Below the pieces are notes generated by a model. It made no database searches. It was not told the origin of the DNA and saw only the letters and a program-made list of their open reading frames with translations. A stretch of DNA of 64,000 bases from Phyllobates terribilis (taxonomy: Eukaryota): NCBI RefSeq assembly GCF_046119375.1, contig NW_027362765.1, forward strand, positions 418,128,001 through 418,192,000. The letters are read 5' to 3'. Below are positions 21,008-48,238 of this stretch, piece after piece. Position 1 is the stretch's first letter. Each line of letters opens with the position of its first letter. Both the position numbers and the translations under genes were made by a program.

Positions 21008-21026
21008 TGGCGTCACGAACAGGATT
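21008..21026 (+). promoter_or_regulatory. Primer binding site, complementary to tRNA-Ser(CGA) 3' end
   Basis: TGGCGTCACGAACAGGATT matches, from recall, the vertebrate tRNA-Ser(CGA) end AATCCTGTTCGTGACGCCA. Confidence 0.8.
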
Positions 21027-21344
21027 CCGTGCGCGCTGCAATGACGGAGTGTTGTGCCCGTTGCCACCGGGTACTGTGCGCCTTTAATCAGAACTGTGTA
21101 TTTAACTGTGGTGAAGATCGCCGCCATTGTTGTGCCGCAGAGCGGGAAGACGGGCGTAACCGCCGGAAACTGAGAGGCGTACCTGCTGAAACGCGCGAAG
21201 CCCCGGACACGCCCCACGCCTCGACGTCAAACCAGGAAGCGCCAGGTCCTGGAAGGAGCCCTGGTGAGCGCTCTGACGCGGAGCTGCGGCCTACCAGAGG
21301 AAAAGAAAAGAAGGTAGGCCGCAGTTCGCTAGCGGGGCACCGGA

Positions 21345-24300
21345 ATGTCCGAAGAACAGCACAACGCCGGAGTACCGGTTAACGGCCCTGATGATCAACC
21401 CGCGCCCGGCGCCGAGCAGGCCGAAGCAGCCGCTCCACCAGCAGGGCTTGTAACCCCTGTCATACCCATGGCCCTACCATACATCCCTGGAGCGAAGTGG
21501 CTCCCCCAGTACAGCGGCAAACCAGATACCCTGTCTGCATTCAAAAGGAAAATATGCGATATACTGGACATGTACTCTGACAGGCAAGCAAAGAACCGCT
21601 GTTGTATTGGGACAATTGACTGGTGCTGCGGAGCGAGAAGTAGAAACCTGGTCGGCCGCAGACCAGGAGGTAGTGTCCGCAATCTTTAAAAAGTTACAGA
21701 TTGTCTTTGAGGATCGTACTGAGACAGACCTCCGGATGAGGTTCTACAACTGCTCTCAGCAACCGGAGGACAGTGTTCGGGACTATGCCTGGCGTTTACA
21801 AGGGGCCCTGCAACCAGCATCAATAATGAAAATAGAATGCTGAAGGAACAGTTTATCCGGGGACTGAGGTCTCAGGAGGAGAGCAGGACTGTGCGTTGGT
21901 GGTCCCTGGATCATCCAGATGCCACCTTTGACACCCTTAAGGACATGGCTATAAAAGGACTGCAGCCCCTGGAAACAACTGCTATCCAATGTTACCAGGG
22001 TGGGGCCCCCCAGTGCCTGCAGCGTCCACCTTTTCCCCGGAGGCTGCTGAAACCAAGGTTCCAGCAACGTCCCCTAGTAAGCTGGACAGCCAGCTCTGAA
22101 GTGTGTCAGTTGAGCAAAACCCTGACCACTGTACTGAGTGCCCTGCAGCTGCGGACGGAGCCCGAGGCAGAAAGAAGGATCCTTCTAGCAGACAGCCCTG
22201 AGGATGTCCCCTGGATGAGAAGGAGGAGGACGATAACGCCACCCCCTGGGAGGACCAGCGACCAACGCCGCCCGCCGAAGGACCCTGTCTGCCACCGCTG
22301 CCACAAGACAGGTCACGCTGTCCAGAGCTGTCCTTTAAACGAGCAAACCCTGGGGCCGAGGGCCGACACCCAGGAGTAGACTCCTCAGGCCCATCAAGCT
22401 GGTAACGCAGGTTCGTGGGAGGAACACCTTTTCTGTCCATCGTGCTGGGTGGCATCGCGACACCCGCTCTGCTGGACACAGGATCTCAGGTAACCATCAT
22501 TCCTGATGTCCTCTACAAAAGGTTCTGGTCTATAGACGAACTTCACCCGCCAGATCCAAATCTTTCCGTGTATACCTCAAACGGCCTCCCCCTTAACCTA
22601 GTCGGGGTTAAGGAGGTGGCAGTGAAGGTAGGAAGAGTGGAACTGAAAGACCAGGGACTAATTGTAGTAGAAACTAATCCTGATGATACAAACTTGTATA
22701 TGGTACTTGGCACAAATATTGTTAGTAACTGTTTGGGAGAAGTGGTGTTCTTGCTCCAACAGATAGCTGACACTGCCTGACCAGGGCAGAGGAGGGTGCT
22801 CCAGAAAGATCGGAGCCCTTATGTACCAGCAACAGGTAAAGCTAACAGGCGGTGAAATTGGTAATGTATGGGTGACAGACCCGGTACCCATTGTGATCCC
22901 CCCGATGAATGAAATGCTGATTTGGTGTAGAGCAGCAATAGGTCTCAAAGGACGGAGCTACCAGGCGGTAGTAGAGACCCTTAGCTCGGAACATAGACCT
23001 ACACTCTTGACTGCCAGAGGGGTACTGGATGTACGCAATGGGAGGGTGCCCGTGCGCCTCCTGAACTATGGGGAGGAAGAGGTTAGATTACCAAGATACG
23101 CCACTGTTGCCAAACTGTACGCAGTAGATAACAACTCCATATACACGGCGGAGTTCTTAACCTCACCAGACGAAATGGAGGATAATGACCCGGGAACCCA
23201 GGTGGAGGATTGGTGTCAACAGCTCCATGTTGGGACAGACACCACTCCTGCCCTTCAGAAACAGGGTGTACACTGGGTGGTTCAGGAATACAAGCAGGTA
23301 TTCAGTAAACACCCACTTGACTTTGGGAGGATTAAAGGGGTACAACACCATATACCCACAGATGGCCATCCACCCATCAAAGAACGTTATAAGCCCATAC
23401 CACCAGCACACTACCAGAAGGCAAATGAGATGTTGCACAACATGAAGAAGGCTGGGGTAGTAAGGGATAGTTGTAGTCCCTGGGCAGCTCCCCTAGTTCT
23501 AGTCAGGAAAAAGGACGGAAGCATGAGAATGTGTGTAGATTACAGACAAGTAAATCGCATTACACATAAAGATGCATACCCTTTACCACGTATAGAGGAA
23601 TCCTTGGCTGCCTTAAGTCTGCAAATTACTTCTCCACCCTTGACCTCACTTGTGGGTACTGGCAAGTAGCTGTTGCTGAGGAGGATCGGGAGAAGACGGC
23701 CTTTACTACCCCGATGGGACTCTGCGAGTTCAACAGTATGCCTTTTGGACTCTGCAACGCCCCCGGAATGTTCCAGAGATTGATGGAGTGCTGCCTGGGA
23801 CACCGCAACTTCGAGACCGTACTGCTATACCTGGATGATGTGATAGTGTACTCCAAAACGTACGAGGACCATTTGAAGCACCTGGCAGAGGTATTTGAGT
23901 CGCTGTCCCGGTATGGGATGAAGCTGAAGCCCTCCAAGTGTCACCTGCTCAAGCGAAAGGTACAGTACCTGGGGCACATCGTCAGTCCAGAAGGAGTAGC
24001 ACTGGACCCGGAGAAGGTCACTGCCATCCAGAAATGGCCGGAGCCGAAGAGCCTCAAGGAGGTACGTCAGTTCCTGGGACTAGTCTGGTATTACCGGAGG
24101 TTTGTGAAGGACTATACCAAGAAAGCGGCGCCTTTGCAAGATCTCCTAGTAGGACAGTCCGTCCGGGAGAGGCAGAAAACCCCCGTTCCAGTGGGGTAAG
24201 GAGCAAGCTGAATCCTTTAAAGTGGTGAAGGAGATCCTGACCGGCGAAGAGATCCTAGCCTACCCTGACTACAGCCAACCGTTCCTGCTGTACACTGATG

Positions 24301-26461
24301 CCAGCAACGAGGGATTAGGAGCTGTGTTAAGTCAGAAGCAGAATGGCTGAGAGAAGGTGATCGCCTATGCAAGAAGGAAGCTCCGCCTGACTGAGAGGAA
24401 CCCAGAGAACTATAGCAGCTTCAAGTTGGAGTTCCTGGCCCTGGTCTGGGCCATCACCGAGCGGTTCAAGCACTACCTAGACTCCAGTAAGTTCACTGCC
24501 TTTATTGATAATAACCCCTTGACTCATCTGGAAACAGCCAAGCTAGGAGCCATGGAACAACGATGGATGGCTCGGCTGTCAAACTACAAATTCACTATTA
24601 AGTACCGGGTGGGCCGCAAGAACGCCAACGCCGATGCCCTGTCCAGGATGCCTCACCAGTCGGACACTGAAGAAGAAGTGGATGACCTGGAGGAGATTGA
24701 ACTACCTGCCTTTCATCGGAATGGGATGGTCCACGAGCAACGAGCCTCCAGGAGGCATCGCGGTAAGACGTTAAACCCCCTGCCTCACCACAGCTGGAAG
24801 GAGACCCAGGATAGCGACCCGGTTGTCAGCCGTATCAAAGAGCTGATAACCCAGGAAGGTTCCTCCCTGGAGAATGACGCTTCTCTACAAGCCAAGCAAC
24901 TGTGGAATGAGAGAAGCTGGCTATTCATCTATAGAGAGAAGCTGTGTCGGAGGTACGTCAGCCCCAAAACCCATGAGATGGTATGGCAGATCGTAGTGCC
25001 CAGGACGGACATCCAGATGGTGTTGGAGGCCTACCACGATCAAGCAGGGCACTTTGGCTGGAAGAAGCTAGAAACCCTGCTGAAGTGTCAGTTTTATTGG
25101 GTAGGAATGCGCAGTTCCATTGAGAGGTGGTGCTGGAATTGTGGACCCTGTAGCCTCAGAAGAAAAGACTACAGCAGCCAGAAGGCACCCCTGCAACCCA
25201 TCAAGACAACTCGACCTTTGGAGATCATGGCCCTGGATCATGTCAAGCTGTCACCCAGCAGGTCAGGATATTCTTATGCCCTGACCATGGTGGATCACTA
25301 CTCCCAGTTCCTGGTGGTCGACCCCGTCAAGGATCTGACGGCAGAAACTGCGGCGAAGATGTTTCAGGCGTACTTCTGCAGGCCCCATGGACACCCAGAG
25401 CAGGTGCTGACAGATCAAGGTTCAGCCTTTGAAGCCGAATTGTTCAAGGAGTTCTGCCATTTGTACGGGTGTAAAAAGATCCGGACTACACCGTACCACC
25501 CCCAAACCAACGGTCTCTGTGAAAAGATGAATAACATCGTCATCGACCTGCTAAAGACCTTACCACTAGAGGAGAGAAATCAGTGGCCAGACCTACTACC
25601 TGACCTGGTAGATCTGTACAACCACATACCTGTGAGTTCCACCAATTGCACTCCAGCATATCTCATGCGAGCAAGACCTGGGAAGTTGCCCATGGACCTG
25701 GAGCTTGGTGTAGTAGAACCAAAAGCAGATATGTCCACTGAGGACTGGGACATGACCAGACAGGAGCAGTACAGAAGAGTACAGACCTGTGTCGAAGACA
25801 GTCTCACTCGGGTAAGGGACAAGCAGGAAGCCCACTACAATAACAGTGAGCCCGCAGAACCCTTCACACCAGGAGAAGTGGTGTTAAAGAGGAAAAGGAG
25901 AAACCACAAACTTGATGACCAGTGGGAGAGAGAACCCTACACTGTGTTAAATTCAAGATTTGATAACAAGAAGACCTGTTTGATTAGCAAAGATGGAGGA
26001 ATAAAGACTGCAACGGTATCTAGAGACCATCTGAAGTTTGTCCAGACCTGCTAAAGCCCCAAGAAGGAGTGCCTCTCACCGTACCGGAGGAGCCTCAAGA
26101 AGCAGTACTCCATACTCACTTAGATGATTTCCTGGCAGATTGGCCTCAACTAGGAGGAGCAGTAATAATACCTGTGATCCACTTCTATCAACAGCCAGAA
26201 GACCCTCCACAGCAAGTAGAACCTGTAAGTGCTTCAGAAGAGCCTGCTCAAGAAGAATCCCCGGAAGAAGGATCCCCGGTTGGAGCAGAGCAAGAAGGCC
26301 TTGCCAGTCCTGTAGAGAGGTTAAGGCAACCCTGCAGTCCCCCAACGCTTAGAACTGACAGAATGGGAGGTAGTACAAACACGAGTACCACACGCTTCCC
26401 AGTACCACGTAGGTCGACACATAGCACACGAGGTCAGACCCCTGTCAGATACAGAGAATAG
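21345..26461 (+). pseudogene. Frameshifted gag-pol of the Gypsy element
   Basis: CHRCHKTGHAVQSC knuckle (21837-22379), LLDTGSQ protease (22415-22780), RT with YLDD (22821-24199), RNase H plus integrase (24357-26054), RRSTHSTRGQTPVRY tail (26069-26461). Broken into at least 8 ORFs. Confidence 0.93.
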
Positions 26462-28034
26462 AGAAGGAAACTCTGACAGTATAAATAGTTGCCCCTGGGG
26501 TATGTTAATTCGGTGCAATTTTCATGTATTTAATGTGTTTTTGCCTTGGTAATGGACAATTTAAGTGATATGGACACTTCCCTTGTTATCTCTAGTTACC
26601 CGTGAGGGTACATAAAGAACTTTGTGGCTGAGGACTGTGTGCAGCCCAAAAATTATTTGCTGTAAATAATTGCACTCCCTGGAGTGCCCCTTTAGGTGAC
26701 CTCAGAACAAAAACCTGTCTGGCGTGGCAGAAGTGGAGTTCCAACTCAGGATCGCCATGCCCTGCAGCCACCCCAGGGCCTACGTTGAGGGTTTGCTTTG
26801 GACAGGTTCAAGCAAAGTGCCTCCCATAAAGGGAAGAGTTATTGTTGTTACCTGTTATAAAAATTACTTCAGTCCGGGAGTACTGAGCTTTGTTAGGGGG
26901 GAATGTGGTGCCCTGCTGCGCATTGGTGCCACAGATCTCAGAGGGGTGCATGGATGGACTTCTCCACAAGAGGCCCTCATAGCATTCACACACCTCCACC
27001 CTACCACCTCAGACCACAAGAGGGAGCCGGGATATATACTGGAGGGTGAAGTTAGGCAGTCTGTTGAGAGGAGCTCCTGCAGAAGCTAGCCTGCAGTGGA
27101 GCTGAGTCAGTCCAGTCCAGACTCAGAGAGCTCACATTAGTGAGCCAGAGGTGTGCTGACACCAAAAGAGCGGTGAAGAGAAGCAAGGCCTACTGCCCGT
27201 GTGAAACCTAATGAGGGCCCCGAGCGTGGCCGAAGGCGAGTGGAGTAAAGAGAGCAACAAAAGGGGGCAGAGGAGCTTTACCCGCTCACCCCAAGAACAT
27301 ATACCAGACACCGGGTCTGCGTCTGCAGGGATTCCTTATACCCAGCAGAAATAACCAGAACCCCTGGAGAACTATATGTACCAGGAACACCAAAAGCTGA
27401 TTACGTACCAGGGTCAGGAGTCACAGAGGTCCCAGAGACCAGGGAGTGTGAACTCCAATAGAAGGCCCCACCACCAAGTCAGCAGGTGCAAGACAGAGAC
27501 CAAGTTAGGCCTAGCTCCAGGCAGGTCAGAAACTTATCAAGGAAAGGCAAGGAACAGGAGGCCCCCACACCTGCTCACTGGGGAGAGTCCTGATATGCAC
27601 CCTTCACCCTGAAGTACCCTGGACCGTGCCTGAAACACCACCAGTAAAGGTACTGAAGTGAACTGTTGTGTGAGTGCCTATCCTTCCTCTGACCCGGCTG
27701 GGTCCCCTCTGTCCTGCATCCCCCACTCCACCTGTGGGGAGTCGTACTAACTAAGCTGCCTAAACACCGGCCTCAGAGGAATGTCGCAGCGCTGGTGATC
27801 CGCACCAGACACCACGGGTGGCGTCACGAACATTCCCCTATCCCATCTATAACTTCCCCCCTTTCTTTTAAGAGTGGCCCCAGGGTACGGGTCCGGGAGC
27901 CGACCACCGCAACATCCCCCAAGGTCAGGCAACAACAAGGCCCGGGCGCCGAGTCGTCCCCATCCCCTGGGCGCGTCATTTACATATGCCGATTCCTGAG
28001 CAAAGTTTTGTTTTTTTTTGGCCAACCCCTTTAA

Positions 28035-31228: not shown

Positions 31229-31357
31229 GCTGAAGGTGACCACTATGGCCGCTAAGCTGAAGGTGACCACTATGGCCGCTAAGCTGAAGGTGACCACTAT
31301 GGCCGCTAAGCTGAAGGTGACCACTATGGCCGCTAAGCTGAAGGTGACCACTATGGC
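31229..31357. repeat. Perfect 27-bp tandem repeat, 4.8 copies
   Basis: Unit gctgaaggtgaccactatggccgctaa starts at 31229, 31256, 31283, 31310 and 31337 (partial). Confidence 0.97.
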
Positions 31358-32793
31358 TGTAGGTGGATAGCGTTTTTGCTTTCTTTTTGCTTTTTTTTTG
31401 CTGTCAGGTTCCCTTTAACTATATTTTAGCTGTAAATCATTAGTCACGGTGACGGCCTGAGGTGGAGCCAGGAAACCATTACTTAATCTGTATGTACAGT
31501 GAATGCGCTGAGTCACACTATACAGTAGGCGAAAACTGAAAGGACATATGGATGTGTAGCACCCTGAGGATTCGGCTGCTACAGGAGTATTGCACCTCAA
31601 CCCAGAGGTGTGATATTCCACTCCCGGGTAAGGATGGAGTGTGGAACTGAGCTCGGTAGGCTGCATGCACTACACACATCCCATTTCCGGGGAACAGGCC
31701 GACGGTACTCCCACTTAGAAATGTGCAGGTACGACCGAGTCTGTTCCTGGCTGGAGTGGGAGGGGGGGTGGTACATCCCATGTAGTGTAGGGGCAGATAG
31801 GGGGAGCAGCCTGGGTAAAGATAGGAGCTCATTGGGTGCTGGTCACCTGAGCTCACACATAGAGGGTGTATATAAGGTGGGCACCAACTAAGATCAGGGT
31901 CAGATGCAGAGGATCAGATGCAGAGAGTCAGTCAGCTGCAGAGAACAAGTCAGGAGCAGAGGAGAGAAGAAAGACAAAGACCCAGAGTGAGAGAGGAGAA
32001 AAGAGAGAGACCCAGAGCACAGAAGAGAAGGACTCTGAGATCCCAACTCAAAGCACCGGGTGAAGAGTCGGCATCAGGGTACCGGAACCCAAGCTGGTGG
32101 GGGTAAAAACATTCCCCAGCCAGAGACCGGAGACCGTGGGCAGCGTCTGCCACGGTCACCCATCACATCCACCCCGAAGGCACACCACATGAAGGGTCAG
32201 GGAACCCAGGGCCAAGGGTGTCCCAACAGAAGGCCCGAGGGAGCTGGACCTAGGTGGATTACTGGTGGGGACGGCCAGAGAACGGGACAGAAAGAGAGCT
32301 CAGGGCCACGCTCCGGACTTGTTTGGGGGTTGGCTGGATCCAGGACCTGGTGGACGCAGCACGGCTCGGGTGGTCACTAGCAGCTGGAGTGACCAGTACA
32401 ACATCTGCAGTAAGTAAACACCCTTAACTGCACAACCCGACTCTGTCTTCACTGCCGTCTGCACTACACCACCACAACCCCCATCCGCTGCGCCTGTCCC
32501 CTCTGAGGCTATACCCCTCCCGTTGGGGGTTATCCCACCAAGCTGCGCACCCACCATCAGCCTCAGCGGACCCTGCTGCAGCGGCGGCCACAGTGACCGC
32601 ATCACAACGGGTGGCGTAGTCGACACAAAAGAACTCTTAATAACATCTGTAGGACTGCCACATAACACTGAGCTTGACGCCCTGGGCACGGGCCGGGTCA
32701 CAGCCGCTCGGAGACTACAAACCCCCCCCCCATCTGATCCGGTGCCGGGTATTCCCCTCAAAAAGGAATATGTCCCAGGGGGCGCGTCAACTT

Positions 32794-32812
32794 TGGCGTA
32801 GTCGGCAGGATT
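32794..32812 (+). promoter_or_regulatory. Primer binding site, complementary to tRNA-Ser(AGA/TGA) 3' end (second copy at 36557-36575)
   Basis: TGGCGTAGTCGGCAGGATT begins 4 nt after the LTR end; matches, from recall, AATCCTGCCGACTACGCCA. Confidence 0.85.
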
Positions 32813-33048
32813 ACGTGCCCGCAACACCCGGGTACTGCGTGCCTGAAGAAAAGTGCAAGTTTACCTCAGAAAGAAGTCTCCCGCCGGTTCCGGAGGGTCC
32901 ACGCCATCGGACTCCATCACCAGTCGTTTCCCGCCGATTGTCCGCCATTTCCAACTTGTTCCCGCCATCTGCAGAGTTTCCCGCCACTGGGCGACGCTTC
33001 CCGCCAAAACCGCAGATTTCCCGCCTTGGAAGAGCAGCGGACGCCATT

Positions 33049-34842
33049 ATGGGCGTGCCAAAGGAGGGCGAGAGGCCGCCTCCCATCGTGGGCCGGGACA
33101 GAAAATGGCGCCAAAAGTGGAAACCGCCCCCACCAACGGAGACTGTGATGCTGGAGGTGTCTGTCAGCGTGAAAGAACTACCCCTGGAGCTGACAGTCAC
33201 CGAGTTGCCCCGGGACCGCCCTCGAAGTGGGAGGAGACGAAAGGAGAGAACAAAGATGGGTGCCGCCTGGAGGAGTCTGGAGCGAGCGCACCCGGAGACA
33301 AGAAGTCTGGAGAGGAGTAGCAGAGAAGCTCACCCGGAGATGTCCAGAGAGCAGAGCAGCACCGGCCCGCTGGCCAGGAGCCTGCTGGAAGAAGAGCAGA
33401 GCAGCACCGACCCGTTGGTCAGGAGCCTGCTGGACACCACGACCCCACTAGGCCTAGTGGAGGTCCTTGCACAGCTCCCCCGAGACCGGGAGTGTGCGCA
33501 GACTGCCCTGGAGGGCCTCGCACGGAGGATGGCCCGGGTACAGCGCGAGATATTGGCGGAATGGAGCCGGGAGATGGCCCAGCAAGCTGAAACCAAGACG
33601 CAAGCTGAAACCAAGACCCGGAGCACGCCAGCCGAGATGAGGAAGGAGACCGCCTCTGAGGATGGCGCGGGAGGACCCAAGGCCGGAGACGGCGCCGAGG
33701 AGGGAGCCGAACGCATGGAGGCAGGTAAAGGGGACGTCTATACCCCAAACCAGGACACCGCTTACCTGCCCCAGCTCCCCGTCGCAGAGCCCGAAAGTCC
33801 CCCTGCTGTGCCCGAAAACGCCATGTCACCGACGCAGACTAGGCCCCAACCGGAAGCCGCCGCCGCGACCCCTGTGACGTCACACGCCTCGACCCCGAGC
33901 GTGACCAAGCAGGAAGTACCACCAGCCTGGTCGCAAGGCCTAGTACCCCCGGGCGTCGCATCACCAACAGCGCCCCCTACCTCCGCGGAGCCTCCGGCCT
34001 GGCCGCAAGGCCAGGTAGCCCAGGGCGCCGCCGTCCTAACGGTGCCCTTCACCTTCCAGGTGCCCCAGGCCTGGCCGCAAGGCCTGGGCAACCCGGGCGC
34101 CACCACCACCGCGCCCGCACCCGTAAAACCAAGGGTGCCGCGTCTGGGAGAGGACTTGTTTGCCCAGCACACGTGGCCGGACGGGCAGCCTTTCATCTGG
34201 CCCCAGAAGTATTACGAACTGGAGCACCAGAGGAGGGTTGGGGCCATGTGTGCACCCCTGATTCCGGCTCCGAAGCCCGTAATAAGGATCTCGCCCCCGC
34301 TAGCGGAAGCACAGTTTGAGTGGGACCCCACCGGAGAAGATCTAATGGGGTTCACTCAGGAAACTAGGGCAGCTGCAGCAGAGCGTGCGGAGTGCTGCCG
34401 CCAACAGCTCGAGGAGTTTGCGAGGGAGCGGAGAGAGAGGCGGGTCCGGGAACAACAGGCCCAAATAAGGAGCGCCGAGCAAAAGAGCCGGACCAGGAGG
34501 GACCCCCGTGCAGCGCACAGTCCCCGTACCACCGGGACTGTAATCAAGTTCAACCAGCAGCATGGGTGGGGCTTCATTCGAGACAACAACACCCCCGGCG
34601 ACGTCTTTGTCACGCGCAGAGACGTGGAGTCCCATCTGCCGGAGGGGCACAGAGGTCGTGACCTCTACATCGGAGATGAGGTCACCTTTACCCGGCACAA
34701 GTGTGCCAAGGGACCTTATGCCCTCCACGTACACCGCCTGACGGAGGAGGAGTTGCGGTGCGAGGAGGAGGAGCAAGAAGACCCGGACGGGTCTGAAGTA
34801 ACAACCAGCTGTAAGCAAAGAGCAGGAGGAAGACGCCGTTGA
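33049..34842 (+). CDS. About 597-aa protein: low-complexity/Pro-rich N-terminus, coiled coil, C-terminal cold-shock (Y-box-like OB fold) domain at 34531-34740
   Basis: The frame is open from 32674. ATG 33049 has a good Kozak context, and an alternative ATG at 32770 lies in the LTR. GTVIKFN..HGWGFI..DVFV..GDEVTF..KGPYALHV aligns with the CSD consensus. Confidence 0.8.
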   Translation: MGVPKEGERPPPIVGRDRKWRQKWKPPPPTETVMLEVSVSVKELPLELTVTELPRDRPRSGRRRKERTKMGAAWRSLERAHPETRSLERSSREAHPEMSREQSSTGPLARSLLEEEQSSTDPLVRSLLDTTTPLGLVEVLAQLPRDRECAQTALEGLARRMARVQREILAEWSREMAQQAETKTQAETKTRSTPAEMRKETASEDGAGGPKAGDGAEEGAERMEAGKGDVYTPNQDTAYLPQLPVAEPESPPAVPENAMSPTQTRPQPEAAAATPVTSHASTPSVTKQEVPPAWSQGLVPPGVASPTAPPTSAEPPAWPQGQVAQGAAVLTVPFTFQVPQAWPQGLGNPGATTTAPAPVKPRVPRLGEDLFAQHTWPDGQPFIWPQKYYELEHQRRVGAMCAPLIPAPKPVIRISPPLAEAQFEWDPTGEDLMGFTQETRAAAAERAECCRQQLEEFARERRERRVREQQAQIRSAEQKSRTRRDPRAAHSPRTTGTVIKFNQQHGWGFIRDNNTPGDVFVTRRDVESHLPEGHRGRDLYIGDEVTFTRHKCAKGPYALHVHRLTEEELRCEEEEQEDPDGSEVTTSCKQRAGGRRR

Positions 34843-36811
34843 GTGCGGCAGAGAAGTGATGTAAATAGTTACCCGACCGGGTACCAAAGAAACTGTTGAT
34901 ATATATATATATAGTCCCCGTTGGGACCAGCTGAGTGAACTGCTTACCCGTTAACCCCTTAATCCCACAGGCTGAGGACTGTGAGCAGCCATTCCCTTCC
35001 CTCTACTGGCCGAGGACTGAGAGCGGCCACCTTCCCTTTTGTATATAGTTGCGCGTCCTAAAGCGCCCCCTACCGGTTTTATAGGAAAACCATTTTTCAA
35101 GAAAAGACTGTCGCACTTTTCCCGGACACACGTTGCACAGTGTCCGGAGGAGGAACCTGAAACAAGAGACGACGAGAATGTTTATATGAAAAGTTTTATA
35201 TATATAATGTTTTATATGTTTTATTATGTTTATATGAAAAAAAAAAAAATTTTTGTATGTTTTGGTGTTATTTATGTCTTACAGCCCGAGGACGTGCTGT
35301 GATTTACCAGGGGGGAATGTAGCACCCTGAGGATTCGGCTGCTACAGGAGTATTGCACCTCAACCCAGAGGTGTGATATTCCACTCCCGGGTAAGGATGG
35401 AGTGTGGAACTGAGCTCGGTAGGCTGCATGCACTACACACATCCCATTTCCGGGGAACAGGCCGACGGTACTCCCACTTAGAAATGTGCAGGTACGACCG
35501 AGTCTGTTCCTGGCTGGAGTGGGAGGGGGGGTGGTACATCCCATGTAGTGTAGGGGCAGATAGGGGGAGCAGCCTGGGTAAAGATAGGAGCTCATTGGGT
35601 GCTGGTCACCTGAGCTCACACATAGAGGGTGTATATAAGGTGGGCACCAACTAAGATCAGGGTCAGATGCAGAGGATCAGATGCAGAGAGTCAGTCAGCT
35701 GCAGAGAACAAGTCAGGAGCAGAGGAGAGAAGAAAGACAAAGACCCAGAGTGAGAGAGGAGAAAAGAGAGAGACCCAGAGCACAGAAGAGAAGGACTCTG
35801 AGATCCCAACTCAAAGCACCGGGTGAAGAGTCGGCATCAGGGTACCGGAACCCAAGCTGGTGGGGGTAAAAACATTCCCCAGCCAGAGACCGGAGACCGT
35901 GGGCAGCGTCTGCCACGGTCACCCATCACATCCACCCCGAAGGCACACCACATGAAGGGTCAGGGAACCCAGGGCCAAGGGTGTCCCAACAGAAGGCCCG
36001 AGGGAGCTGGACCTAGGTGGATTACTGGTGGGGACGGCCAGAGAACGGGACAGAAAGAGAGCTCAGGGCCACGCTCCGGACTTGTTTGGGGGTTGGCTGG
36101 ATCCAGGACCTGGTGGACGCAGCACGGCTCGGGTGGTCACTAGCAGCTGGAGTGACCAGTACAACATCTGCAGTAAGTAAACACCCTTAACTGCACAACC
36201 CGACTCTGTCTTCACTGCCGTCTGCACTACACCACCACAACCCCCATCCGCTGCGCCTGTCCCCTCTGAGGCTATACCCCTCCCGTTGGGGGTTATCCCA
36301 CCAAGCTGCGCACCCACCATCAGCCTCAGCGGACCCTGCTGCAGCGGCGGCCACAGTGACCGCATCACAACGGGTGGCGTAGTCGACACAAAAGAACTCT
36401 TAATAACATCTGTAGGACTGCCACATAACACTGAGCTTGACGCCCTGGGCACGGGCCGGGTCACAGCCGCTCGGAGACTACAAACCCCCCCCCCATCTGA
36501 TCCGGTGCCGGGTATTCCCCTCAAAAAGGAATATGTCCCAGGGGGCGCGTCAACTTTGGCGTAGTCGGCAGGATTACGTGCCCGCAACACCCGGGTACTG
36601 CGTGCCTGAAGAAAAGTGCAAGTTTACCTCAGAAAGAAGTCTCCCGCCGGTTCCGGAGGGTCCACGCCATCGGACTCCATCACCAGTCGTTTCCCGCCGA
36701 TTGTCCGCCATTTCCAACTTGTTCCCGCCATCTGCAGAGTTTCCCGCCACTGGGCGACGCTTCCCGCCAAAACCGCAGATTTCCCGCCTTGGAAGAGCAG
36801 CGGACGCCATT

Positions 36812-38605
36812 ATGGGCGTGCCAAAGGAGGGCGAGAGGCCGCCTCCCATCGTGGGCCGGGACAGAAAATGGCGCCAAAAGTGGAAACCGCCCCCACCAAC
36901 GGAGACTGTGATGCTGGAGGTGTCTGTCAGCGTGAAAGAACTACCCCTGGAGCTGACAGTCACCGAGTTGCCCCGGGACCGCCCTCGAAGTGGGAGGAGA
37001 CGAAAGGAGAGAACAAAGATGGGTGCCGCCTGGAGGAGTCTGGAGCGAGCGCACCCGGAGACAAGAAGTCTGGAGAGGAGTAGCAGAGAAGCTCACCCGG
37101 AGATGTCCAGAGAGCAGAGCAGCACCGGCCCGCTGGCCAGGAGCCTGCTGGAAGAAGAGCAGAGCAGCACCGACCCGTTGGTCAGGAGCCTGCTGGACAC
37201 CACGACCCCACTAGGCCTAGTGGAGGTCCTTGCACAGCTCCCCCGAGACCGGGAGTGTGCGCAGACTGCCCTGGAGGGCCTCGCACGGAGGATGGCCCGG
37301 GTACAGCGCGAGATATTGGCGGAATGGAGCCGGGAGATGGCCCAGCAAGCTGAAACCAAGACGCAAGCTGAAACCAAGACCCGGAGCACGCCAGCCGAGA
37401 TGAGGAAGGAGACCGCCTCTGAGGATGGCGCGGGAGGACCCAAGGCCGGAGACGGCGCCGAGGAGGGAGCCGAACGCATGGAGGCAGGTAAAGGGGACGT
37501 CTATACCCCAAACCAGGACACCGCTTACCTGCCCCAGCTCCCCGTCGCAGAGCCCGAAAGTCCCCCTGCTGTGCCCGAAAACGCCATGTCACCGACGCAG
37601 ACTAGGCCCCAACCGGAAGCCGCCGCCGCGACCCCTGTGACGTCACACGCCTCGACCCCGAGCGTGACCAAGCAGGAAGTACCACCAGCCTGGTCGCAAG
37701 GCCTAGTACCCCCGGGCGTCGCATCACCAACAGCGCCCCCTACCTCCGCGGAGCCTCCGGCCTGGCCGCAAGGCCAGGTAGCCCAGGGCGCCGCCGTCCT
37801 AACGGTGCCCTTCACCTTCCAGGTGCCCCAGGCCTGGCCGCAAGGCCTGGGCAACCCGGGCGCCACCACCACCGCGCCCGCACCCGTAAAACCAAGGGTG
37901 CCGCGTCTGGGAGAGGACTTGTTTGCCCAGCACACGTGGCCGGACGGGCAGCCTATCATCTGGCCCCAGAAGTATTACGAACTGGAGCACCAGAGGAGGG
38001 TTGGGGCCATGTGTGCACCCCTGATTCCGGCTCCGAAGCCCGTAATAAGGATCTCGCCCCCGCTAGCGGAAGCACAGTTTGAGTGGGACCCCACCGGAGA
38101 AGATCTAATGGGGTTCACTCAGGAAACTAGGGCAGCTGCAGCAGAGCGTGCGGAGTGCTGCCGCCAACAGCTCGAGGAGTTTGCGAGGGAGCGGAGAGAG
38201 AGGCGGGTCCGGGAACAACAGGCCCAAATAAGGAGCGCCGAGCAAAAGAGCCGGACCAGGAGGGACCCCCGTGCAGCGCACAGTCCCCGTACCACCGGGA
38301 CTGTAATCAAGTTCAACCAGCAGCATGGGTGGGGCTTCATTCGAGACAACAACACCCCCGGCGACGTCTTTGTCACGCGCAGAGACGTGGAGTCCCATCT
38401 GCCGGAGGGGCACAGAGGTCGTGACCTCTACATCGGAGATGAGGTCACCTTTACCCGGCACAAGTGTGCCAAGGGACCTTATGCCCTCCACGTACACCGC
38501 CTGACGGAGGAGGAGTTGCGGTGCGAGGAGGAGGAGCAAGAGGACCCGGACGGGTCTGAAGTAACAACCAACTGTAAGCAAAGAGCAGGAGGAAGACGCC
38601 GTTGA
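36812..38605 (+). CDS. Second copy of the cold-shock-domain ORF
   Basis: Offset of 3763 bp from copy 1; only two amino-acid differences seen (F>I in GQPFIW, S>N in TTSCK). Confidence 0.8.
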   Translation: MGVPKEGERPPPIVGRDRKWRQKWKPPPPTETVMLEVSVSVKELPLELTVTELPRDRPRSGRRRKERTKMGAAWRSLERAHPETRSLERSSREAHPEMSREQSSTGPLARSLLEEEQSSTDPLVRSLLDTTTPLGLVEVLAQLPRDRECAQTALEGLARRMARVQREILAEWSREMAQQAETKTQAETKTRSTPAEMRKETASEDGAGGPKAGDGAEEGAERMEAGKGDVYTPNQDTAYLPQLPVAEPESPPAVPENAMSPTQTRPQPEAAAATPVTSHASTPSVTKQEVPPAWSQGLVPPGVASPTAPPTSAEPPAWPQGQVAQGAAVLTVPFTFQVPQAWPQGLGNPGATTTAPAPVKPRVPRLGEDLFAQHTWPDGQPIIWPQKYYELEHQRRVGAMCAPLIPAPKPVIRISPPLAEAQFEWDPTGEDLMGFTQETRAAAAERAECCRQQLEEFARERRERRVREQQAQIRSAEQKSRTRRDPRAAHSPRTTGTVIKFNQQHGWGFIRDNNTPGDVFVTRRDVESHLPEGHRGRDLYIGDEVTFTRHKCAKGPYALHVHRLTEEELRCEEEEQEDPDGSEVTTNCKQRAGGRRR

Positions 38606-40805
38606 GTGCGGCAGAGAAGTGATGTAAATAGTTACCCGACCGGGTACCAAAGAAACTGTTGATATATATATATATAGTCACCGTTGGGACCAGCTGAGTG
38701 AACTGCTTACCCGTTAACCCCTTAATCCCACAGGCTGAGGACTGTGAGCAGCCATTCCCTTCCCTCTACTGGCCGAGGACTGAGAGCGGCCACCTTCCCT
38801 TTTGTATATAGTTGCGCGTCCTAAAGCGCCCCCTACCGGTTTTATAGGAAAACCATTTTTCAAGAAAAGACTGTCGCACTTTTCCCGGACACACGTTGCA
38901 CAGTGTCCGGAGGAGGAACCTGAAACAAGAGACGACGAGAATGTTTATATGAAAAGTTTTATATATATAATGTTTTATATGTTTTATTATGTTTATATGA
39001 AAAAAAAAAAATTTTTGTATGTTTTGGTGTTATTTATGTCTTACAGCCCGAGGACGTGCTGTGATTTACCAGGGGGGAATGTAGCACCCTGAGGATTCGG
39101 CTGCTACAGGAGTATTGCACCTCAACCCAGAGGTGTGATATTCCACTCCCGGGTAAGGATGGAGTGTGGAACTGAGCTCGGTAGGCTGCATGCACTACAC
39201 ACATCCCATTTCCAGGGAACAGGCCGACGGTACTCCCACTTAGAAATGTGCAGGTACGACCGAGTCTGTTCCTGGCTGGAGTGGGAGGGGGGGTGGTACA
39301 TCCCATGTAGTGTAGGGGCAGATAGGGGGAGCAGCCTGGGTAAAGATAGGAGCTCATTGGGTGCTGGTCACCTGAGCTCACACATAGAGGGTGTATATAA
39401 GGTGGGCACCAACTAAGATCAGGGTCAGATGCAGAGGATCAGATGCAGAGAGTCAGTCAGCTGCAGAGAACAAGTCAGGAGCAGAGGAGAGAAGAAAGAC
39501 AAAGACCCAGAGTGAGAGAGGAGAAAAGAGAGAGACCCAGAGCACAGAAGAGAAGGACTCTGAGATCCCAACTCAAAGCACCGGGTGAAGAGTCGGCATC
39601 AGGGTACCGGAACCCAAGCTGGTGGGGGTAAAAACATTCCCCAGCCAGAGACCGGAGACCGTGGGCAGCGTCTGCCACGGTCACCCATCACATCCACCCC
39701 GAAGGCACACCACATGAAGGGTCAGGGAACCCAGGGCCAAGGGTGTCCCAACAGAAGGCCCGAGGGAGCTGGACCTAGGTGGATTACTGGTGGGGACGGC
39801 CAGAGAACGGGACAGAAAGAGAGCTCAGGGCCACGCTCCGGACTTGTTTGGGGGTTGGCTGGATCCAGGACCTGGTGGACGCAGCACGGCTCGGGTGGTC
39901 ACTAGCAGCTGGAGTGACCAGTACAACATCTGCAGTAAGTAAACACCCTTAACTGCACAACCCGACTCTGTCTTCACTGCCGTCTGCACTACACCACCAC
40001 AACCCCCATCCGCTGCGCCTGTCCCCTCTGAGGCTATACCCCTCCCGTTGGGGGTTATCCCACCAAGCTGCGCACCCACCATCAGCCTCAGCGGACCCTG
40101 CTGCAGCGGCGGCCACAGTGACCGCATCACAACGGGTGGCGTAGTCGACACAAAAGAACTCTTAATAACATCTGTAGGACTGCCACATAACACTGAGCTT
40201 GACGCCCTGGGCACGGGCCGGGTCACAGCCGCTCGGAGACTACAAACCCCCCCCCCCATCTGATCCGGTGCCGGGTATTCCCCTCAAAAAGGAATATGTC
40301 CCAGGGGGCGCGTCAGATGCAACAAGTTCATCAGGTGCAAAACGTTAATATATCCTTCACTTTATAAGGATTATTTCATCTGGAACTGCCAACATGTTAA
40401 GATTAATGGACAGAAAATAATAATTGTCTAAATAAAATAGCTAGGTAATAATTTTTATTAAATTAATTAAATTAAATTTTATTTATATTGCGCCAACGTA
40501 TTCTGCAGCACTTTACAATTGAGGGGGACATATACAGAGGAGTGGGGGTCCTGCTTGTAAGTTTACAATCTATAAGGATGTTATACAGTCACATGAAACA
40601 GTGGGCCTCAAAACAGTCTTTGTTGCCCCTAGCAACCAATCACAATAGAGCTTTTATTTTCTTAAACTGTGCTGGTAAAATGAAAGCTGTGCTGTGATTG
40701 GTTGATAGGGGCAATAGAGTTTTTTTTTTTTTTTTTTTTTATATATGAGGCCCTGTTTAGTTTATCTGAAACACTAATAGTTACCAATTAAAAGGAAAAG
40801 GCTGA

Positions 40806-41908: not shown

Positions 41909-42984
41909 TGAAGGTGAATATTGGAGGGTGTGTGCAAAACTTAAAGGGGTTATCCAGGACTATATATTTTTTAACAATCTGCCTAACCACTAACAGGCAG
42001 GTAGTTGCCATCTACCTGCCTGTTGTGCCCGACGCTGATATCTGCCAGCACAGAACAGTCACAGACCGCTCCTGTCGGCAATTCAGCGGCTTCCACTGAC
42101 GTCACGTCGGCAGAGCAGCGGCCTTCTCTTCTGCTCTGTTGACTGCTGATGTCATGCTGATTGACAGCCGGCTCCCCGCTGCCTAACTGCATGCTAAGGT
42201 CTCATTCACACGTACATGTTGTGTCTTTTTTTTCACGGATAAACACGTACCCATTATAATCGATGGTGCTTTTCACATTTCCATGCAGAGGACACTTAGG
42301 ACAGGTGAGTATATGGATTTTTTTTATTTTATTCTTATTTTTACAGGTGGAGAAACCGGGAGCAGACACTACAACTCTCATCATTATCCCCTGCTGGTGC
42401 TGATCCCTGTGCCGGCAGGTGACTATGTTGAGGGCAGCGTTCAGCACCCGGCGCTTGGGAACAGCGCTAACTGTACTGCTGATTCCCAGGCGCCGGTACT
42501 TGTCACACTGATGGCATCAGTGTGTGGTACATGTTTACAGAGACCCATTGACGTGAATGGTTCTGTGTGATCCGTGCTGCCGGCCAAAGCCAGACATGTC
42601 TACGTGTGGATCACATGGACACACGGTCCGTGGAAACACACTGACATGTGCGCAGACCCACACGGTCCATGGGAACTGTAACCACACGTACAGAAGGGGG
42701 CTGGAGGCATGGGAACCTAGAAGGAAGCCCCACATGACCGGGATTGGCCAGGAGGGTGCAATTTTTAAATCCCAATGGTCGGGATTGGGTATAGGTTTGG
42801 AGGGGCTGGCATTTGGATGGGGGTGGGGTAAAGGGGGGGAAGAGGTATAATAGGGAAAAGTGCGGGAAAACGGGCAGTCCAGGGAAGAAGCCATTGAGAG
42901 AAGTTCTGGAGCACTGATAAAAAAAAAAAAAAAAAAAAAAAATTATTTTACCTTTTTAATTGCTGGGACACTCTTCTCGCTATT

Positions 42985-45157
42985 ATGGAGTCTGTGGAGT
43001 CCCTTATCGCCAGGCTGAGGGAGACTGCCAGATCCAGGCAAGGAGGGTGGCTTGAGGCCCAGCTGGCCGGACTTCTGGGGAATGCCGGGGAGGAAGAATC
43101 CCCGTCGGGTTTGGGAAGAAGTGCCAGGAGGACGCGGCCCCCCGAGAGGCTTTCCCCGGAGATGGTTGGTACGGGCAGCAGGCGCAGGCTGCGGAGCCCC
43201 TCAGGGGACCCTGTGTCCGGGGAGCATGCCGGCGGAATCCCCTGCCGGCGTGCCCGCCGCGGCAGGAATCCGCCCAGCCGGTCTGCGGGCTCCCCCTGCA
43301 ACGGGTCGCGGTCCGCGACTGAAGTTCCCCGGTCCGTCGTGGTGCAGCCTCCCCCGTCGGCGCGCCGCAGTACTAGAGCCCAGGCCACGCCGGAAGCAAG
43401 GCCCGGGCCGCAGACGCGTCATCCGGGGGGCGGGGCCTCACCGGAAATGGGGACTACGTCACTTCCGGCCCCGGAGACAGACGAGAGGGACGCACAGCCA
43501 ATGAGCGGCGGGCGCAGTGACACGCCCCCCGCTCCAAGATCTAGCGGCGATTCAAGACGCCGGTTATTTAAAAGAAAAAAGGGCGGCAATCCTGCAGCGG
43601 GGAACGGAGGGAACACCAGCGCGGCAGGCACACCTGGTGACGTTCCTGTCGGGGTGCCTGCCAGACAGACCAGAGGGCGCAGACAGCAGCGGAGCTACAC
43701 GGGCAGGCAGCAACAATTCCAGGACCTGCTGCCTGGCTCAAGTTTCTCCAGGCAGAGGGATGGAGCGGCGGGCAGCAGCACGGATTTGCCTGGCAGTTAT
43801 CCACGGACCAACACGGATCGGGCTGGTGAGTCCGGGTCTAAAAATCGCGGATGTGCACGGTCGGCAGTGAGGAGTGGAGGACGAACGGCGGGGAGGTCGG
43901 CACGGGCTCGGGTCCCCCCTGGTGACGAGGAGGCCAGGGGCGCGGGCCTTGAGCAGCAGGGGTCGGTCGGACTGGATTATGGAGAAGAACAAGACGAACC
44001 AAGGACTCATCAGGACTCGGGGAGTACGGCTGGCGGGGACACAGCACCTGCGCAGCTTCGTGAGTATGCGTCTATGTATGGTTTGTCGCCCGCGGGGTCT
44101 GTAGCGGATGGGGTAGGCGATAGGCAGGTGTCTGGGCCCAGCGGGGAAAATGTTAGGGGAGGTAGTGGGTCAGATGTAAGCGGGTTTAGGGATTTGTTGG
44201 TTAGCATGTCGCGCATTTTGGCGAGAATAGACGGCGGGGGGGCCATTCAAAGGGGGTTGTCACCGGCGGGGGCTTGGCTACCTAGTCAACCGGCGTTGTT
44301 GCAGGTGGGGAGCGAGTCGGCCAGGTCGGCGGGGTGTACAGCTGGGACACCTTCTGGGGTGTCGGTGTGTGTGCAGACAGAAAAGGATAATGCGGATAGT
44401 ATAAAACTGGATGATAGGGCGAAAGGGGAGGTATACGTGTGCTTTGAGGGGCCATTGGGGGCGCATTTAAAAAAAAGAGGTTAAAGAAAAAATTTGGCGG
44501 GACGAGTATGTCGAAATTTTTTCCCTTCTTCCGTTGGAAAAGTTTAACCTGGATAAGGGAAAAAAGGAAGACAGTAAAAAAGAGGAAGAAGAGAAGCGTA
44601 GGTGGAGGTTGATTCCACAGACGTTTGTCAATTGGTTGCAAGCTTTTGCAATAATGGCTAGCGTTATTGGAGAAAAAGCTCCTGATAATTGTTCGGGTTT
44701 GTTTTGCTACCTTGATGCTATTGGGGAGGCTCATAGGACTTACGGGGGTCAGACATGGTTACGTTATGACGAGCAATTTCGTCAGAGGAAGGCAGTCCGC
44801 CCTGAGATCAGATGGGATCAAAAGGACATTGGGTTGTGGCTGAAGGTTATGGCCCCAGTGAGGTATGGGCAGTCCTTTCACGGGAGCAGCAGTAGTGGTA
44901 ACCAACCAGCAGGACAAGGGGGAGGTAACCAAGGGGCACAAAGCACTAAGAAGGAAGTGGGAACTTGCTGGCAATTTAATGACGGCCAATGCAAGTACGG
45001 GACCTCCTGTAAATTCAAACACGTGTGCTCCCATTGTAATGGAAGCTCACACGGAGCATCAAAATGCTTTAAGAAGGGTAAGGGAAAGCCGACAGTGGGT
45101 ACCGGTCAAAGGGGTGACTCCGGTGAGGGTTCACGCGATGGCCCCCTTTCTAAGTAG
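42985..45157 (+). CDS. Ngaro ORF1 (Gag-like) with CCCH plus CCHC fingers; 1-bp frameshift in the A8 run at 44469-44476
   Basis: Removing one A joins 42985-44484 to the 44534-45157 frame (HLKKEVKEKIWRDEYVEIFSLLP); CWQFNDGQCKYGTSCKFKH then CSHCNGSSHGASKC. Confidence 0.85.
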
Positions 45158-46713
45158 GTATCCTGATCAGTCGAAGGCTAAGGTCATTTCGGATGGGTTT
45201 TTGGAAGGTTTTAGAATCCCTCCTCCTGAGCACGAGGTCCCCTTTTCACTAAAAAATTTGACGTCGGCTTCCCTTCATCCGGATGTGGTTAGCGTGAAGT
45301 TGGCTAAGGAGGTGGAATTGGGCAGGATGGCGGGACCGTTTCGGGTATTACCTAGCAGCAGGGTGATTATCTCGCCACTGGGGGTTGTGCCCAAAAAAAG
45401 AGCTGAATAAGTTTCGTTTGATTCAGCATTTGTCGTACCCGAAGGGGCTCTCGGTGAATGATGGCATTGCACAGGAATTATGTTCAGTTGAATATACATC
45501 ATTTGATGCGGCGGTGCGATGGGTACAGCGTTATGGGTCAGGATCGTTGCTAGCCAAGACGGATATCGAGTCGGCTTTTCGGTTGCTGCCAGTTCACGCG
45601 GATAGCATCCCGTTGTTAGGTTGTTTTTGGAATGGGGCATATTACATGGATAGAGGTTTGCCAATGGGTTGTGCAATTTCGTGTTCTTTGTTTGAAACGT
45701 TTAGTACCTTTTTGGAATGGGTGGTGATGGACCTGGCATCAGTTAATTCAGTCATTCATTATTTGGATGATTTTTTGTTTATAGGCCCTCCGCAATCGTT
45801 ATTGTGTAGGAATTTGTTAGGTACTATGGTGTGGGTAGCGGAGCATTTTGGTGTACCATTGGCAAAAGAAAAGACAGAAGGCCCTTGCACAATCCTAAGT
45901 TTTTTGGGCATTGTAATTGATACAGAAAGGATGGAGTGCCGGTTACCTGAAGATAAATTGTGTCTGCTCAAGCAGGAGGTCGATAGAGTCAGGAGGTTGC
46001 GCAAGGTGACCCTGAGGGAGCTACAATCGCTGTTGGGGCGCTTAAATTTTGCATGCAGGATTATGCCAATGGGCAGAATATTTTGTCGCAGGTTGTCAGG
46101 CGCCACAGCAGGAGTGCGTGGGGCTCATCATTTTATCCGCCTAAATAAGGAACACAAGGAGGATCTGAGGGTTTGGAAGTTGTTTTTGGAAAGCTATAAT
46201 GGCAGGTCATTAATCCAGCAGGAGTTTGTAAGCAGTTTTGATTGTGAGATTTTTACAGATGCTGCGGGAGGTGCTGGATACGGGGCCTACTGGAAAGGGC
46301 GGTGGAGTGTTGGGGCATGGCCGATTGGGTGGACGGAGAGGGGACTTACGAGGAACCTGGCGTTTTTGGAATTGTTCCCTATTGTTGTTGCGGTTACTAT
46401 TTGGGGGGAGTGTTTTGCCAACAGGAGAATTCGGTTTCATTGCGATAACATGGGAGTGGTGTCTGTCATCAACAGCTTGTCGGCCTCATCCCCGCCTGTG
46501 ATTAGGTTACTGAGGGAACTAGTACTTTGTTGTCTTAAGCTGAACGCTTGGATTACAGCGGTCCATGTTCCAGGTGTACAAAATTCTATAGCAGATGCCT
46601 TATCTCGTTTTCAGTGGGACCGTTTTCGGGCGCTAGCACCAGAGGCAGGGGACGTGGGTCAAGAATGCCCTTCGCATTTGTGGCAACTGGTTATGGAGGA
46701 GCCGGACGGTTAA
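44865..46713 (+). CDS. Ngaro reverse transcriptase-RNase H; 1-bp frameshift in the A7 run at 45393-45399; true start uncertain
   Basis: SPLGVVPKK/ELNKFRLI, GLPMG, HYLDDF, FTDAAG, HCDN, HVPGVQNSIADALSR; overlaps ORF1 and YR as is typical of DIRS-order elements. Confidence 0.92.
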
Positions 46714-47576
46714 TAAGGGAGTCCATTACGAGGCAGACCTGGGCATCATACGAGGCATCGTGGCGAGTATGGCAAAGTTGGATTCTGGAGTGGGGTGTGG
46801 TGGAAGGTGAAGGAGATAGAGAGATGGCGGTGTTGTTTCTTGTGGGAAGGGCAGCAGAGATTGGATGGTCTGTGTCAAAAGTTAGTAAATTTGTAGCAGG
46901 ATTGGCATTCGCTTTTAAATTGCAGGGGTTAAAAGATGTTACAAAATCGTTTTTAGTGAAGCAAGCACTTAGGGGCTTTAGGAGAGGCGGTAAGGTGTTA
47001 GATAAACGAAGACCGGTGACTTTTAGTATTTTAGAGCGGTTGGGTTTAGTGTTGGATAAGATTTGTTGTTCAGTTTTTGAAGCCACTCTGTTTAGGTTGG
47101 CTTTTTCATTGGCGTTCTTTGGCGCACTAAGATTAGGTGAGTTGGTGGCACCAAGTAGGAATAAGGTTGGGGGTTTGTTTGCCGAGGATGTGAGTGGTCG
47201 GAAAGGGGGCATCGAATTTTGGATTAGGAGGGCGAAGATGGATCAATTGGGCAGAGGCAAGCTAGTGGTATTGGGGGAAGTTGATGGATCGTTTATGTGT
47301 CCTAGGAGATGTTTAATGGCTTACTGGCAGGTTTGGTCGGGACGTAAGGGCCCATTATTGTGTCATAAAAACGGAGAGTTTCTGTCACGTTTTCAATTTA
47401 TTGCAGTATTTAAAAAAGGGATCCGGGAGTTGGGCCTTAGTCCTGAGGTGTACGGGTCGCATTCTTTCAGAATCGGTGCGGCGTCAGAAGCGGACGGTTT
47501 GGGTTTAGGAAAGGATGTGATAAAACGCATCGGGAGGTGGAGTTCAGATCGTTATCTGTCCTATGTACGGCATTAG
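46548..47576 (+). CDS. Tyrosine recombinase (true start probably nearer 46700)
   Basis: Catalytic set: R (ALRLGEL), K (RAKMDQ), HSFR, W (GRW), Y (YLSY). Confidence 0.93.
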   Translation: MDYSGPCSRCTKFYSRCLISFSVGPFSGASTRGRGRGSRMPFAFVATGYGGAGRLIRESITRQTWASYEASWRVWQSWILEWGVVEGEGDREMAVLFLVGRAAEIGWSVSKVSKFVAGLAFAFKLQGLKDVTKSFLVKQALRGFRRGGKVLDKRRPVTFSILERLGLVLDKICCSVFEATLFRLAFSLAFFGALRLGELVAPSRNKVGGLFAEDVSGRKGGIEFWIRRAKMDQLGRGKLVVLGEVDGSFMCPRRCLMAYWQVWSGRKGPLLCHKNGEFLSRFQFIAVFKKGIRELGLSPEVYGSHSFRIGAASEADGLGLGKDVIKRIGRWSSDRYLSYVRH

Positions 47577-47639
47577 GTGTGCAGGCTTATGTTTTATCTG
47601 GTCAGAAGTGAATACAATTCTTTGGTTGTCTTATTGCAG

Positions 47640-48238
47640 GTGACGTCCCGTTATTAGTCTGGATTCTTGGACACTCTTTCGTTCATTGGGGGGCGCTGCG
47701 GGCGGATGTGAGGCCAAACGGTAGGCAATTGGGTTTTAGCAGAGAGCAAGTGGTGGTCCGGTGGCTGGGTTTTAGAGGGATGGTATGGAGAAGGGTGCTT
47801 CCTGAATTCCATAAGGCGGCTCGTTTGGACCGGGCGCCGGACATTTTGGTGGTGCATATGGGGGGGAATGATTTGGGGGTTCGGCCAGTTAGGGAATTGA
47901 TGAGGGATATTCGAATTGATTTTTTTTTAAGGTTATGGACATCTTTTCCTGGGGTGTTGACGGTTTGGTCTGACATTGTGCCGAGAAAAAATTGGAGGGA
48001 GGCCAGATCAGTGAAGGGCATTAATAGGGCACGAGTAAAGTTGAATAGAGCCATAGCAGCTTTTGTTGGTAGAAATGGGGGTGTAAGTGTTCGGCATCTT
48101 GATCTCGAGGCAGGGGTTGGTGATTTTTGGGCAAAAGATGGGGTGCACCTGAACGATATTGGGATTGATTTATGGGCATTATCTATACAGGAGGGGATTG
48201 AGAGGGCTTTGGCAGTGTTGGGGCGCTCACGAGCCTGA
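47640..48238 (+). CDS. SGNH/GDSL hydrolase coding segment, apparently a spliced exon
   Basis: Blocks WILGHSF (Ser 47675-47677), GFRG, GGND, DGVH. Preceded by the acceptor tcttattgcag; in-frame stop at 47609 and no ATG before the Ser. Confidence 0.85.

Follow-up and report, generated by a model that had tools for sequence, protein, structure and literature searches.

An LTR retrotransposon family without pol in the frog Phyllobates terribilis whose single open reading frame ends in a Y-box-like cold-shock domain

Non-autonomous retrotransposons with long terminal repeats (LTRs) are usually either non-coding or have kept a Gag gene. Here we describe an element of another kind, found in a 64,000-nt stretch of the genome (10.57 Gb) of the frog Phyllobates terribilis (assembly GCF_046119375.1, contig NW_027362765.1, positions 418,128,001-418,192,000; hereafter the window). 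It lacks pol, and its single open reading frame (ORF) ends in a Y-box-like cold-shock domain (CSD). The plant TR-GAG elements have a similar layout, being mobile, smaller than 4-5 kb and made of LTRs, a primer-binding site (PBS), a polypurine tract (PPT) and one ORF, with no enzymes (PMC4350172). The TR-GAG ORF is a Gag, whereas that of the frog element shows no similarity to Gag and carries a host-type CSD at its end. LTR elements of birds have repeatedly captured the same domain, PF00313, in 46 endogenous retroviruses (ERVs), which the authors read as possibly adaptive (PMC12287698). Those are retroviruses bearing a reverse transcriptase (RT), in which the position of the CSD varies, and the accessible part of that paper mentions neither a family without pol nor a copy number or a test of selection. 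In the frog family, by contrast, nothing but the CSD gene is encoded, and mobility appears to depend on Gypsy elements. The ORF of the mammalian MaLR elements is regarded as Gag-related. Like the frog family, MaLR elements have a very high copy number, no pol, one ORF and need of an autonomous partner; the helper is ERV-L in their case (PMC5131818) and apparently a Gypsy element with a PNMA-type Gag in the frog. Finally, LTR-mediated retrocopies hold a piece of host mRNA between LTRs and are re-mobilised in trans (PMC5131818), and by analogy this is the likely route of origin of the frog family. They are young low-copy chimeras close to the parent gene, whereas the frog CSD is ~35% identical to YB-1, lies in a 597-aa new protein and has diversified into subfamilies with thousands of copies. 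Full-text literature searches turned up no account of this architecture; as their scope did not extend to Repbase, Dfam or subscription journals, it may already have been catalogued.

The element forms a tandem, LTR-interior-LTR-interior-LTR, at 31555-40315. A first-pass annotation of the window had ended it at 36552, wrongly, as a PBS, a second interior and a third LTR follow, up to 40315. The paired 1235-bp TG..CA LTRs it described are confirmed: LTR1 (31555-32789, + strand, TGTAGCACCC...GGGCGCGTCA) and LTR2 (35318-36552, +), the latter common to both units, show 0 differences, and LTR3 (39080-40315, +, 1236 bp) has 2 differences from LTR2. The second interior (36553-39079, +; PBS 36557-36575, ORF 36812-38605, PPT 39070-39079) differs from the first at 5 positions. 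The 4-bp target-site duplication (TSD) reported earlier, GATG, exists, but it is a single duplication (left copy 31551-31554, right copy 40316-40319) that brackets the whole tandem and not 31555-36552. The PPT, CAGGGGGGAA, is present as described (35308-35317, +), and LTR1 contains a TATA-like box (31869-31876) and an AGTAAA (32413-32418), both putative signals. Both clades of the family described below commonly form such tandem arrays, of 2-4 units placed ~3.6-3.8 kb apart (for example, G000:C7:99320138-99331830).

A long open frame runs from 32653 to 34842, and a conserved ATG at 33049 gives the ORF of 597 aa (33049-34842, +). This ATG is marked across subfamilies by a D-A-I-M motif, several older copies open just before it, and translation likely starts there. 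The ORF consists, in order, of a basic N-terminus, a short helical block, a Pro/Ala low-complexity middle, a conserved core, the CSD and an acidic tail. The only Pfam match over the cut-off in the open frame is the CSD (PF00313, residues 627-694, E 6.9e-09, 35.9 bits against a cut-off of 27; 34531-34734, +). The scan thus upheld both the C-terminal CSD of the first-pass annotation and its statement that the interior, with its one long open frame, has no match to protease, RT, integrase or a CCHC motif. One detail needs correction, since in the alignment to YB-1 the RNP2 motif is DVFVT and not DVFVH; in the same alignment a Lys replaces the Trp of the usual K-W-F strand. Among 14 family CSDs the RNP1 glycines are invariant and the RNP1 Phe nearly so.

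A profile built from these 14 domains ranks YBX1/2 first among solved CSDs (56-59 bits), ahead of the best bacterial Csp (43.7), LIN28B (24.3) and CARHSP1 (22.5), in line with the proposal that of these the domain is closest to Y-box proteins. The likeness to YBX1 and YBX2 includes the long loop after RNP2; the family CSD differs in lacking the Trp and the RNP2 His and in being preceded by a long helix. In Y-box proteins a long C-terminal tail alternates between basic and acidic blocks; the frog ORF, with only ~35 residues after the CSD, has no such tail. An alignment-based model of the C-terminal 239 aa predicts a 45-residue helix just before the CSD (34366-34500, +, pLDDT 83-95) and a five-strand barrel (pLDDT 77-95 overall, strands 77-94); a conserved W-D-x-T-G-E-x-L-M-G-F motif precedes the helix. 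The single-sequence model of the ORF (mean pLDDT 52), disordered over a long middle part, has helices and a barrel; its top Foldseek rows were all CSDs (best E 1.0e-03, none below 0.001). In the ESM Atlas the clusters nearest to a related protein (P0001) scored below 0.9 and were of CSD type, leads only.

The exact 36-nt junction between LTR end and PBS was found 11,207 times genome-wide, and its reversed control 0 times. Searching the genome with the CSD region gave 38,074 first-look candidates, which is not a copy number; 150 of the 150 scored matches were 100% identical. Twenty CSD-selected copies all consisted of an LTR, a ~2.5-kb interior and an LTR, with internal pol in 0 of 20, and had 18 perfect 4-bp TSDs, 1 with a mismatch and 1 that was unreadable. 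The first 20 junctions by position, a less biased sample, had internal pol in 0 of 20 as well; 14 were open through the CSD, 3 were frame-broken and 3 were without CSD, and LTR pair identity was 98.6-100% in the 19 correctly paired copies. Numerous copies, distinct TSDs and intact ORFs thus bear out the mobile family proposed earlier. With LTRs, PBS, PPT and TSD, no pol and many independent insertions, the element is a non-autonomous LTR retrotransposon; the gag and protease-RT-RNase H-integrase set of an autonomous Ty3/Gypsy element is missing from the window element. Since internal pol was seen in 0 of the 40 copies, we reject the view that the element arose by simple deletion from a pol-bearing one that had this ORF.

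Of 20 loci from a Pfam CSD search, 14 belong to LTR elements of this kind, and the identity between their paired LTRs falls to as low as 79%; the family thus has old as well as young layers. Two of these loci (L183 and L193) use a second PBS type, that of a Gypsy element in the window at ~19892-27980, as expected if CSD elements track helper lineages. The window element and another copy (L143) have a dS of 1.1 in the ORF core despite an exact shared LTR-PBS junction, which points to an exchange of modules between subfamilies. Starting from a divergent CSD, we found a second clade, B: its LTRs (1030 bp) are unrelated, its PBS is the same, its TSDs are of 4 bp, and its ~2.6-kb interiors hold one long ORF, whose CSD is 36-39% identical to that of the window. 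An LTR pair was present in 15 of the 20 clade B loci fetched, and pol inside none. The clade B junction occurs 538 times in the genome, and a 3.5-3.6-kb period was seen in 11 of the first 20.

Beyond this genome, named relatives among proteins come from Ranitomeya variabilis, R. imitator and Anomaloglossus baeobatrachus, as well as from P. terribilis itself, whose two proteins (P0001 and P0002) may stem from the same assembly and are not counted as independent. Protein searches in wider taxa returned 4, 1 and 4 proteins with word-based methods and 222 with HMMER, mostly multi-CSD proteins; 8 of the latter and P0002 were looked up, and the named relatives are dendrobatoid frogs only, though annotation masks repeats.

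Selection was estimated as Nei-Gojobori dN/dS among 12 copies from different subfamilies, hand-picked for open frames. The pooled ratio was 0.18 in the CSD, with 1.44-1.84 in shifted frames (n=4) and 0.33 in the antisense shadow frame. It rose to 0.25 in the 130 residues before the CSD and to 0.43-0.56 in the helical block and low-complexity middle, and at the N-terminus (0.62) it did not differ from that in shifted frames. In six pairs, each of two copies used in no other pair, the CSD ratio was 0.06-0.16 at dS 0.48-1.73, so that neutral decay is not seen. These ratios indicate that a protein product is selected during mobilisation, mostly in its C-terminal third, and with internal pol lacking from all copies inspected they support a mobile pol-less family with a captured CSD, as first proposed.

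The PBS (32794-32812, +, 19 nt, TGGCGTAGTCGGCAGGATT) is the complement of a tRNA 3' end with CCA. Followed by a different next base, it occurs 30,361 times genome-wide, and the first 20 of these comprise 16 gag-pol Gypsy elements, 3 CSD elements and 1 unclear case. The gag-pol elements have interiors of 5.3-6.0 kb where both LTRs were found. Two that were examined have, by Pfam, a Gag that is PNMA/Retrotrans_gag-like and includes a CCHC knuckle; in the single Pol scanned, protease (a weak match), RT, RNase H and integrase follow one another as they do in Gypsy. They match the CSD element in the LTR 3' end, the PPT, the 4-bp TSD and a U5-PBS-leader block (32503-33045, +; 70-73% by blastn over 32503-32985) that is alignable to about the ORF start and likely carries priming and packaging signals. 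The alignment ends roughly at the ATG of the CSD element, still ~200 nt short of the helper gag start. A shared PBS, leader, PPT and termini are the usual helper-passenger signature, and on these grounds the same-PBS Gypsy elements are the likely helper; that the architecture is helper-dependent and non-Gag we regard as very probable. A PPT-LTR pattern for a helper with the same LTR start had 1 match in the genome (L081), and an integrase search gave only the family of the window's own Gypsy element (L082-L111). This last element (~19892-27980, +) is a degenerate gag-pol Gypsy of the helper's wider lineage; because its PBS differs, it is ruled out as direct helper and is a relative of the helper. 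The leader at 32925-33030 is made of repeated TTTCCCGCC(A) units, present in the helper leader as well, which resemble E2F and YY1 sites. An Rfam scan of the element gave no match near the gathering score.

The assignment of the primer to tRNA-Ser is partly backed. The 19-nt PBS stands, and reverse-transcribed tRNA pieces in the genome end in PBS-matching sequence plus CCA and have a TGA anticodon loop and a long variable arm; together with the vertebrate tRNA-Ser sequence this makes tRNA-Ser the probable primer. Of four primer-tRNA loci examined, however, none is a clean tRNA-Ser gene: ARAGORN called one tRNA-Ala and Rfam none. Four of 36 matches (L283-L286) are genomic tRNA 3' ends with an encoded CCA, one of which adjoins an LTR end, and are likely primer tRNA copied beyond the usual stop. 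A partial second PBS copy in U5 (32612-32622, +, TGGCGTAGTCG) sits ~180 nt upstream of the real PBS, as it does in the window Gypsy (~20880-20895) and at two further loci (L164 and L173). It varies with PBS type, being TGGCGTCACGAAC in the window Gypsy, and is possibly a second tRNA contact.

Our preferred reading, to which we assign a probability of roughly 0.55, is that the Y-box-like protein is predicted to bind the element's RNA and thereby to improve its survival or packaging. The LTR would drive a germline transcript, which the CSD protein would coat with some cis preference, as Y-box proteins do on mRNA. The coated RNA would be a better competitor for helper Gag, itself recognising the common leader; helper RT would then prime on tRNA-Ser, and helper integrase would produce the 4-bp duplication. 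YBX1 is described as stabilising HIV-1 genomic RNA and supporting replication (review, PMC10487795) and as found in L1 particles (PMC3753637), and Gypsy RNA as abundant in the ova of a poison frog (PMC6278860). A captured RNA-binding domain selected without retroelement genes would imply a selectable RNA step between transcription and packaging that can be improved by the passenger's protein.

Several observations weigh against this reading. The Y-box origin is drawn from profile scores, in which the 12-15 bits by which YBX1/2 lead the best bacterial Csp partly reflect loop length, and the dN/dS values come from copies chosen for open frames. In Y-box proteins the strand-1 Trp and the RNP2 His stack on RNA bases. 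The family CSDs retain GWGF and DVFV; the Trp is found in 1 of 14 aligned domains and the His in 1 of 14. In Unr, CSDs without FGF and FFH bind no RNA and can serve as scaffolds (PMC7383231). Because these residues are lost and Unr domains without such motifs are non-binding, the family CSD probably binds RNA in an altered way, if it does so at all. A search for a helper of clade B, using one YLDD pattern at the first 20 of its 538 junctions, was negative, with a sense-strand YLDD motif inside 0 of the 20. Moreover, the three position-selected copies without CSD have three different deletion junctions, one present in 78 copies and another in 31 (many of these on small contigs). Ten copies of the 78-copy type lie at ten sites, with 7 perfect and 3 one-mismatch TSDs and LTR variants in common, so repeated copying is possible for RNA that lacks the CSD gene, and the CSD protein is not strictly needed in cis. 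Compared with 11,207, these lineages stay small, in keeping with an advantage in cis rather than a requirement. Under the RNA-binding reading, derivatives without CSD would be copied and yet stay a minority because the CSD protein (or host YBX) can serve other RNAs.

Some of these observations feed the most serious competitor, which we nevertheless consider unlikely: a pseudo-RNA-binding domain would act in trans, through protein contacts, as a decoy for the host's control of RNA or against it (masking by Y-box proteins, silencing by small RNAs), and so aid all related elements in the cell. The loss of Trp and His, the transposition of derivatives without CSD and the scaffold role of non-canonical Unr CSDs (PMC7383231) agree with it, and the conserved 45-residue helix could be an interaction surface. 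Shorter cheaters should, however, erode such a shared benefit, yet the ORF is selected to dS >1 in several lineages, 17 of 20 copies retain the CSD and the GWGF and DVFV aromatics are conserved. Still more doubtful is a protein that binds single-stranded or promoter DNA and raises LTR transcription or aids reverse transcription or integration. YBX1 does activate retroviral LTRs and interact with integrase (PMC10487795), and the N-terminus is basic; but the CSD persists in both clades, A and B, whose U3 regions are wholly different, and the N-terminus, with its ratio matching that of shifted frames, is without clear selection.

We find it highly improbable, and already largely refuted, that the ORF is a highly diverged Gag with the CSD as nucleocapsid, forming its own particle and borrowing Pol in the manner of TR-GAG. 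A single ORF beginning right after the leader and ending in a nucleic-acid-binding domain would suit such a Gag. Against the helper Gag, however, the best BLASTP E was 2.4 and the profile-profile probability 0.2% (with shallow alignments), and the N-terminal alignment had no match in Pfam (0 of 7 members) or among PDB sequences. The hidden capsid fold sought in the N-terminal half was not found in these searches, nor was a capsid-like bundle or a capsid Foldseek match in the low-confidence single-sequence model, and selection on that half is weak. A Gag or capsid origin is therefore rejected, and the idea of the first-pass annotation that the CSD replaces the Gag knuckle finds no support; the helper Gag has its own CCHC knuckle. 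Least credible is a CSD that is a neutral passenger of template switching, or is kept only since some copies help the host: LTR-mediated retrocopies are common in animals (PMC5131818) and derivatives without CSD move, but purifying selection acts between mobile subfamilies at synonymous divergence near saturation, and the same layout recurs in a clade with 39% CSD identity.

More tentatively, and with somewhat less confidence than we place in the RNA-level role, the family may represent a hitherto undescribed class of satellite retrotransposons: old, deeply split lineages with neither Gag nor Pol, whose one Y-box-derived protein hijacks or competes for Gypsy particles and which co-diversify with helper primer types. 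The remodelled CSD would then be among the most numerous protein-coding domains in these giant frog genomes, and the family may bear on their growth. Together with the repeated capture of CSDs by bird ERVs, it suggests that LTR elements are time and again limited by Y-box function. With young copies in the thousands, helpers that match them and naturally arisen derivatives without CSD all in one genome, cis versus trans action, and cheating, can be measured directly. As a warning, 'CSD domain-containing' gene models in these frog genomes are element copies. Two gene models fuse the family CSD to R3HCC1 (P0002) and to an astacin/CUB protein (P0153), as annotation artefacts or by exonisation.

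Among other CSD loci, host YBX genes were looked for and not recovered. Eight loci (L051-L058) are presumably host CSDE1-like exons and intronless multi-CSD copies, and one (L071) is a decayed Y-box-like frame. At G000:C4:791.48-791.52 Mb, three divergent CSD frames (L202-L204) lie 17-19 kb apart, keep the RNP2 His, show no LTR pair and could be an ancient or domesticated relative. Elsewhere in the window, a solo LTR of a related subfamily (10976-12179, -) is 81% identical and has its own 4-bp duplication, and 200 bp to the left of the insertion there is a 27-bp minisatellite of 4.8 copies (31229-31357). At 1-4001, a different Gypsy-type element is represented by gag-pol-like frames, one of them of 1130 codons at 612-4001. 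A further retroelement, possibly DIRS-like, lies at 42898-48235. It has several long ORFs with motifs that include RT-like ones, its GC skew is strong, and there are repeats at 42692 and 48691.

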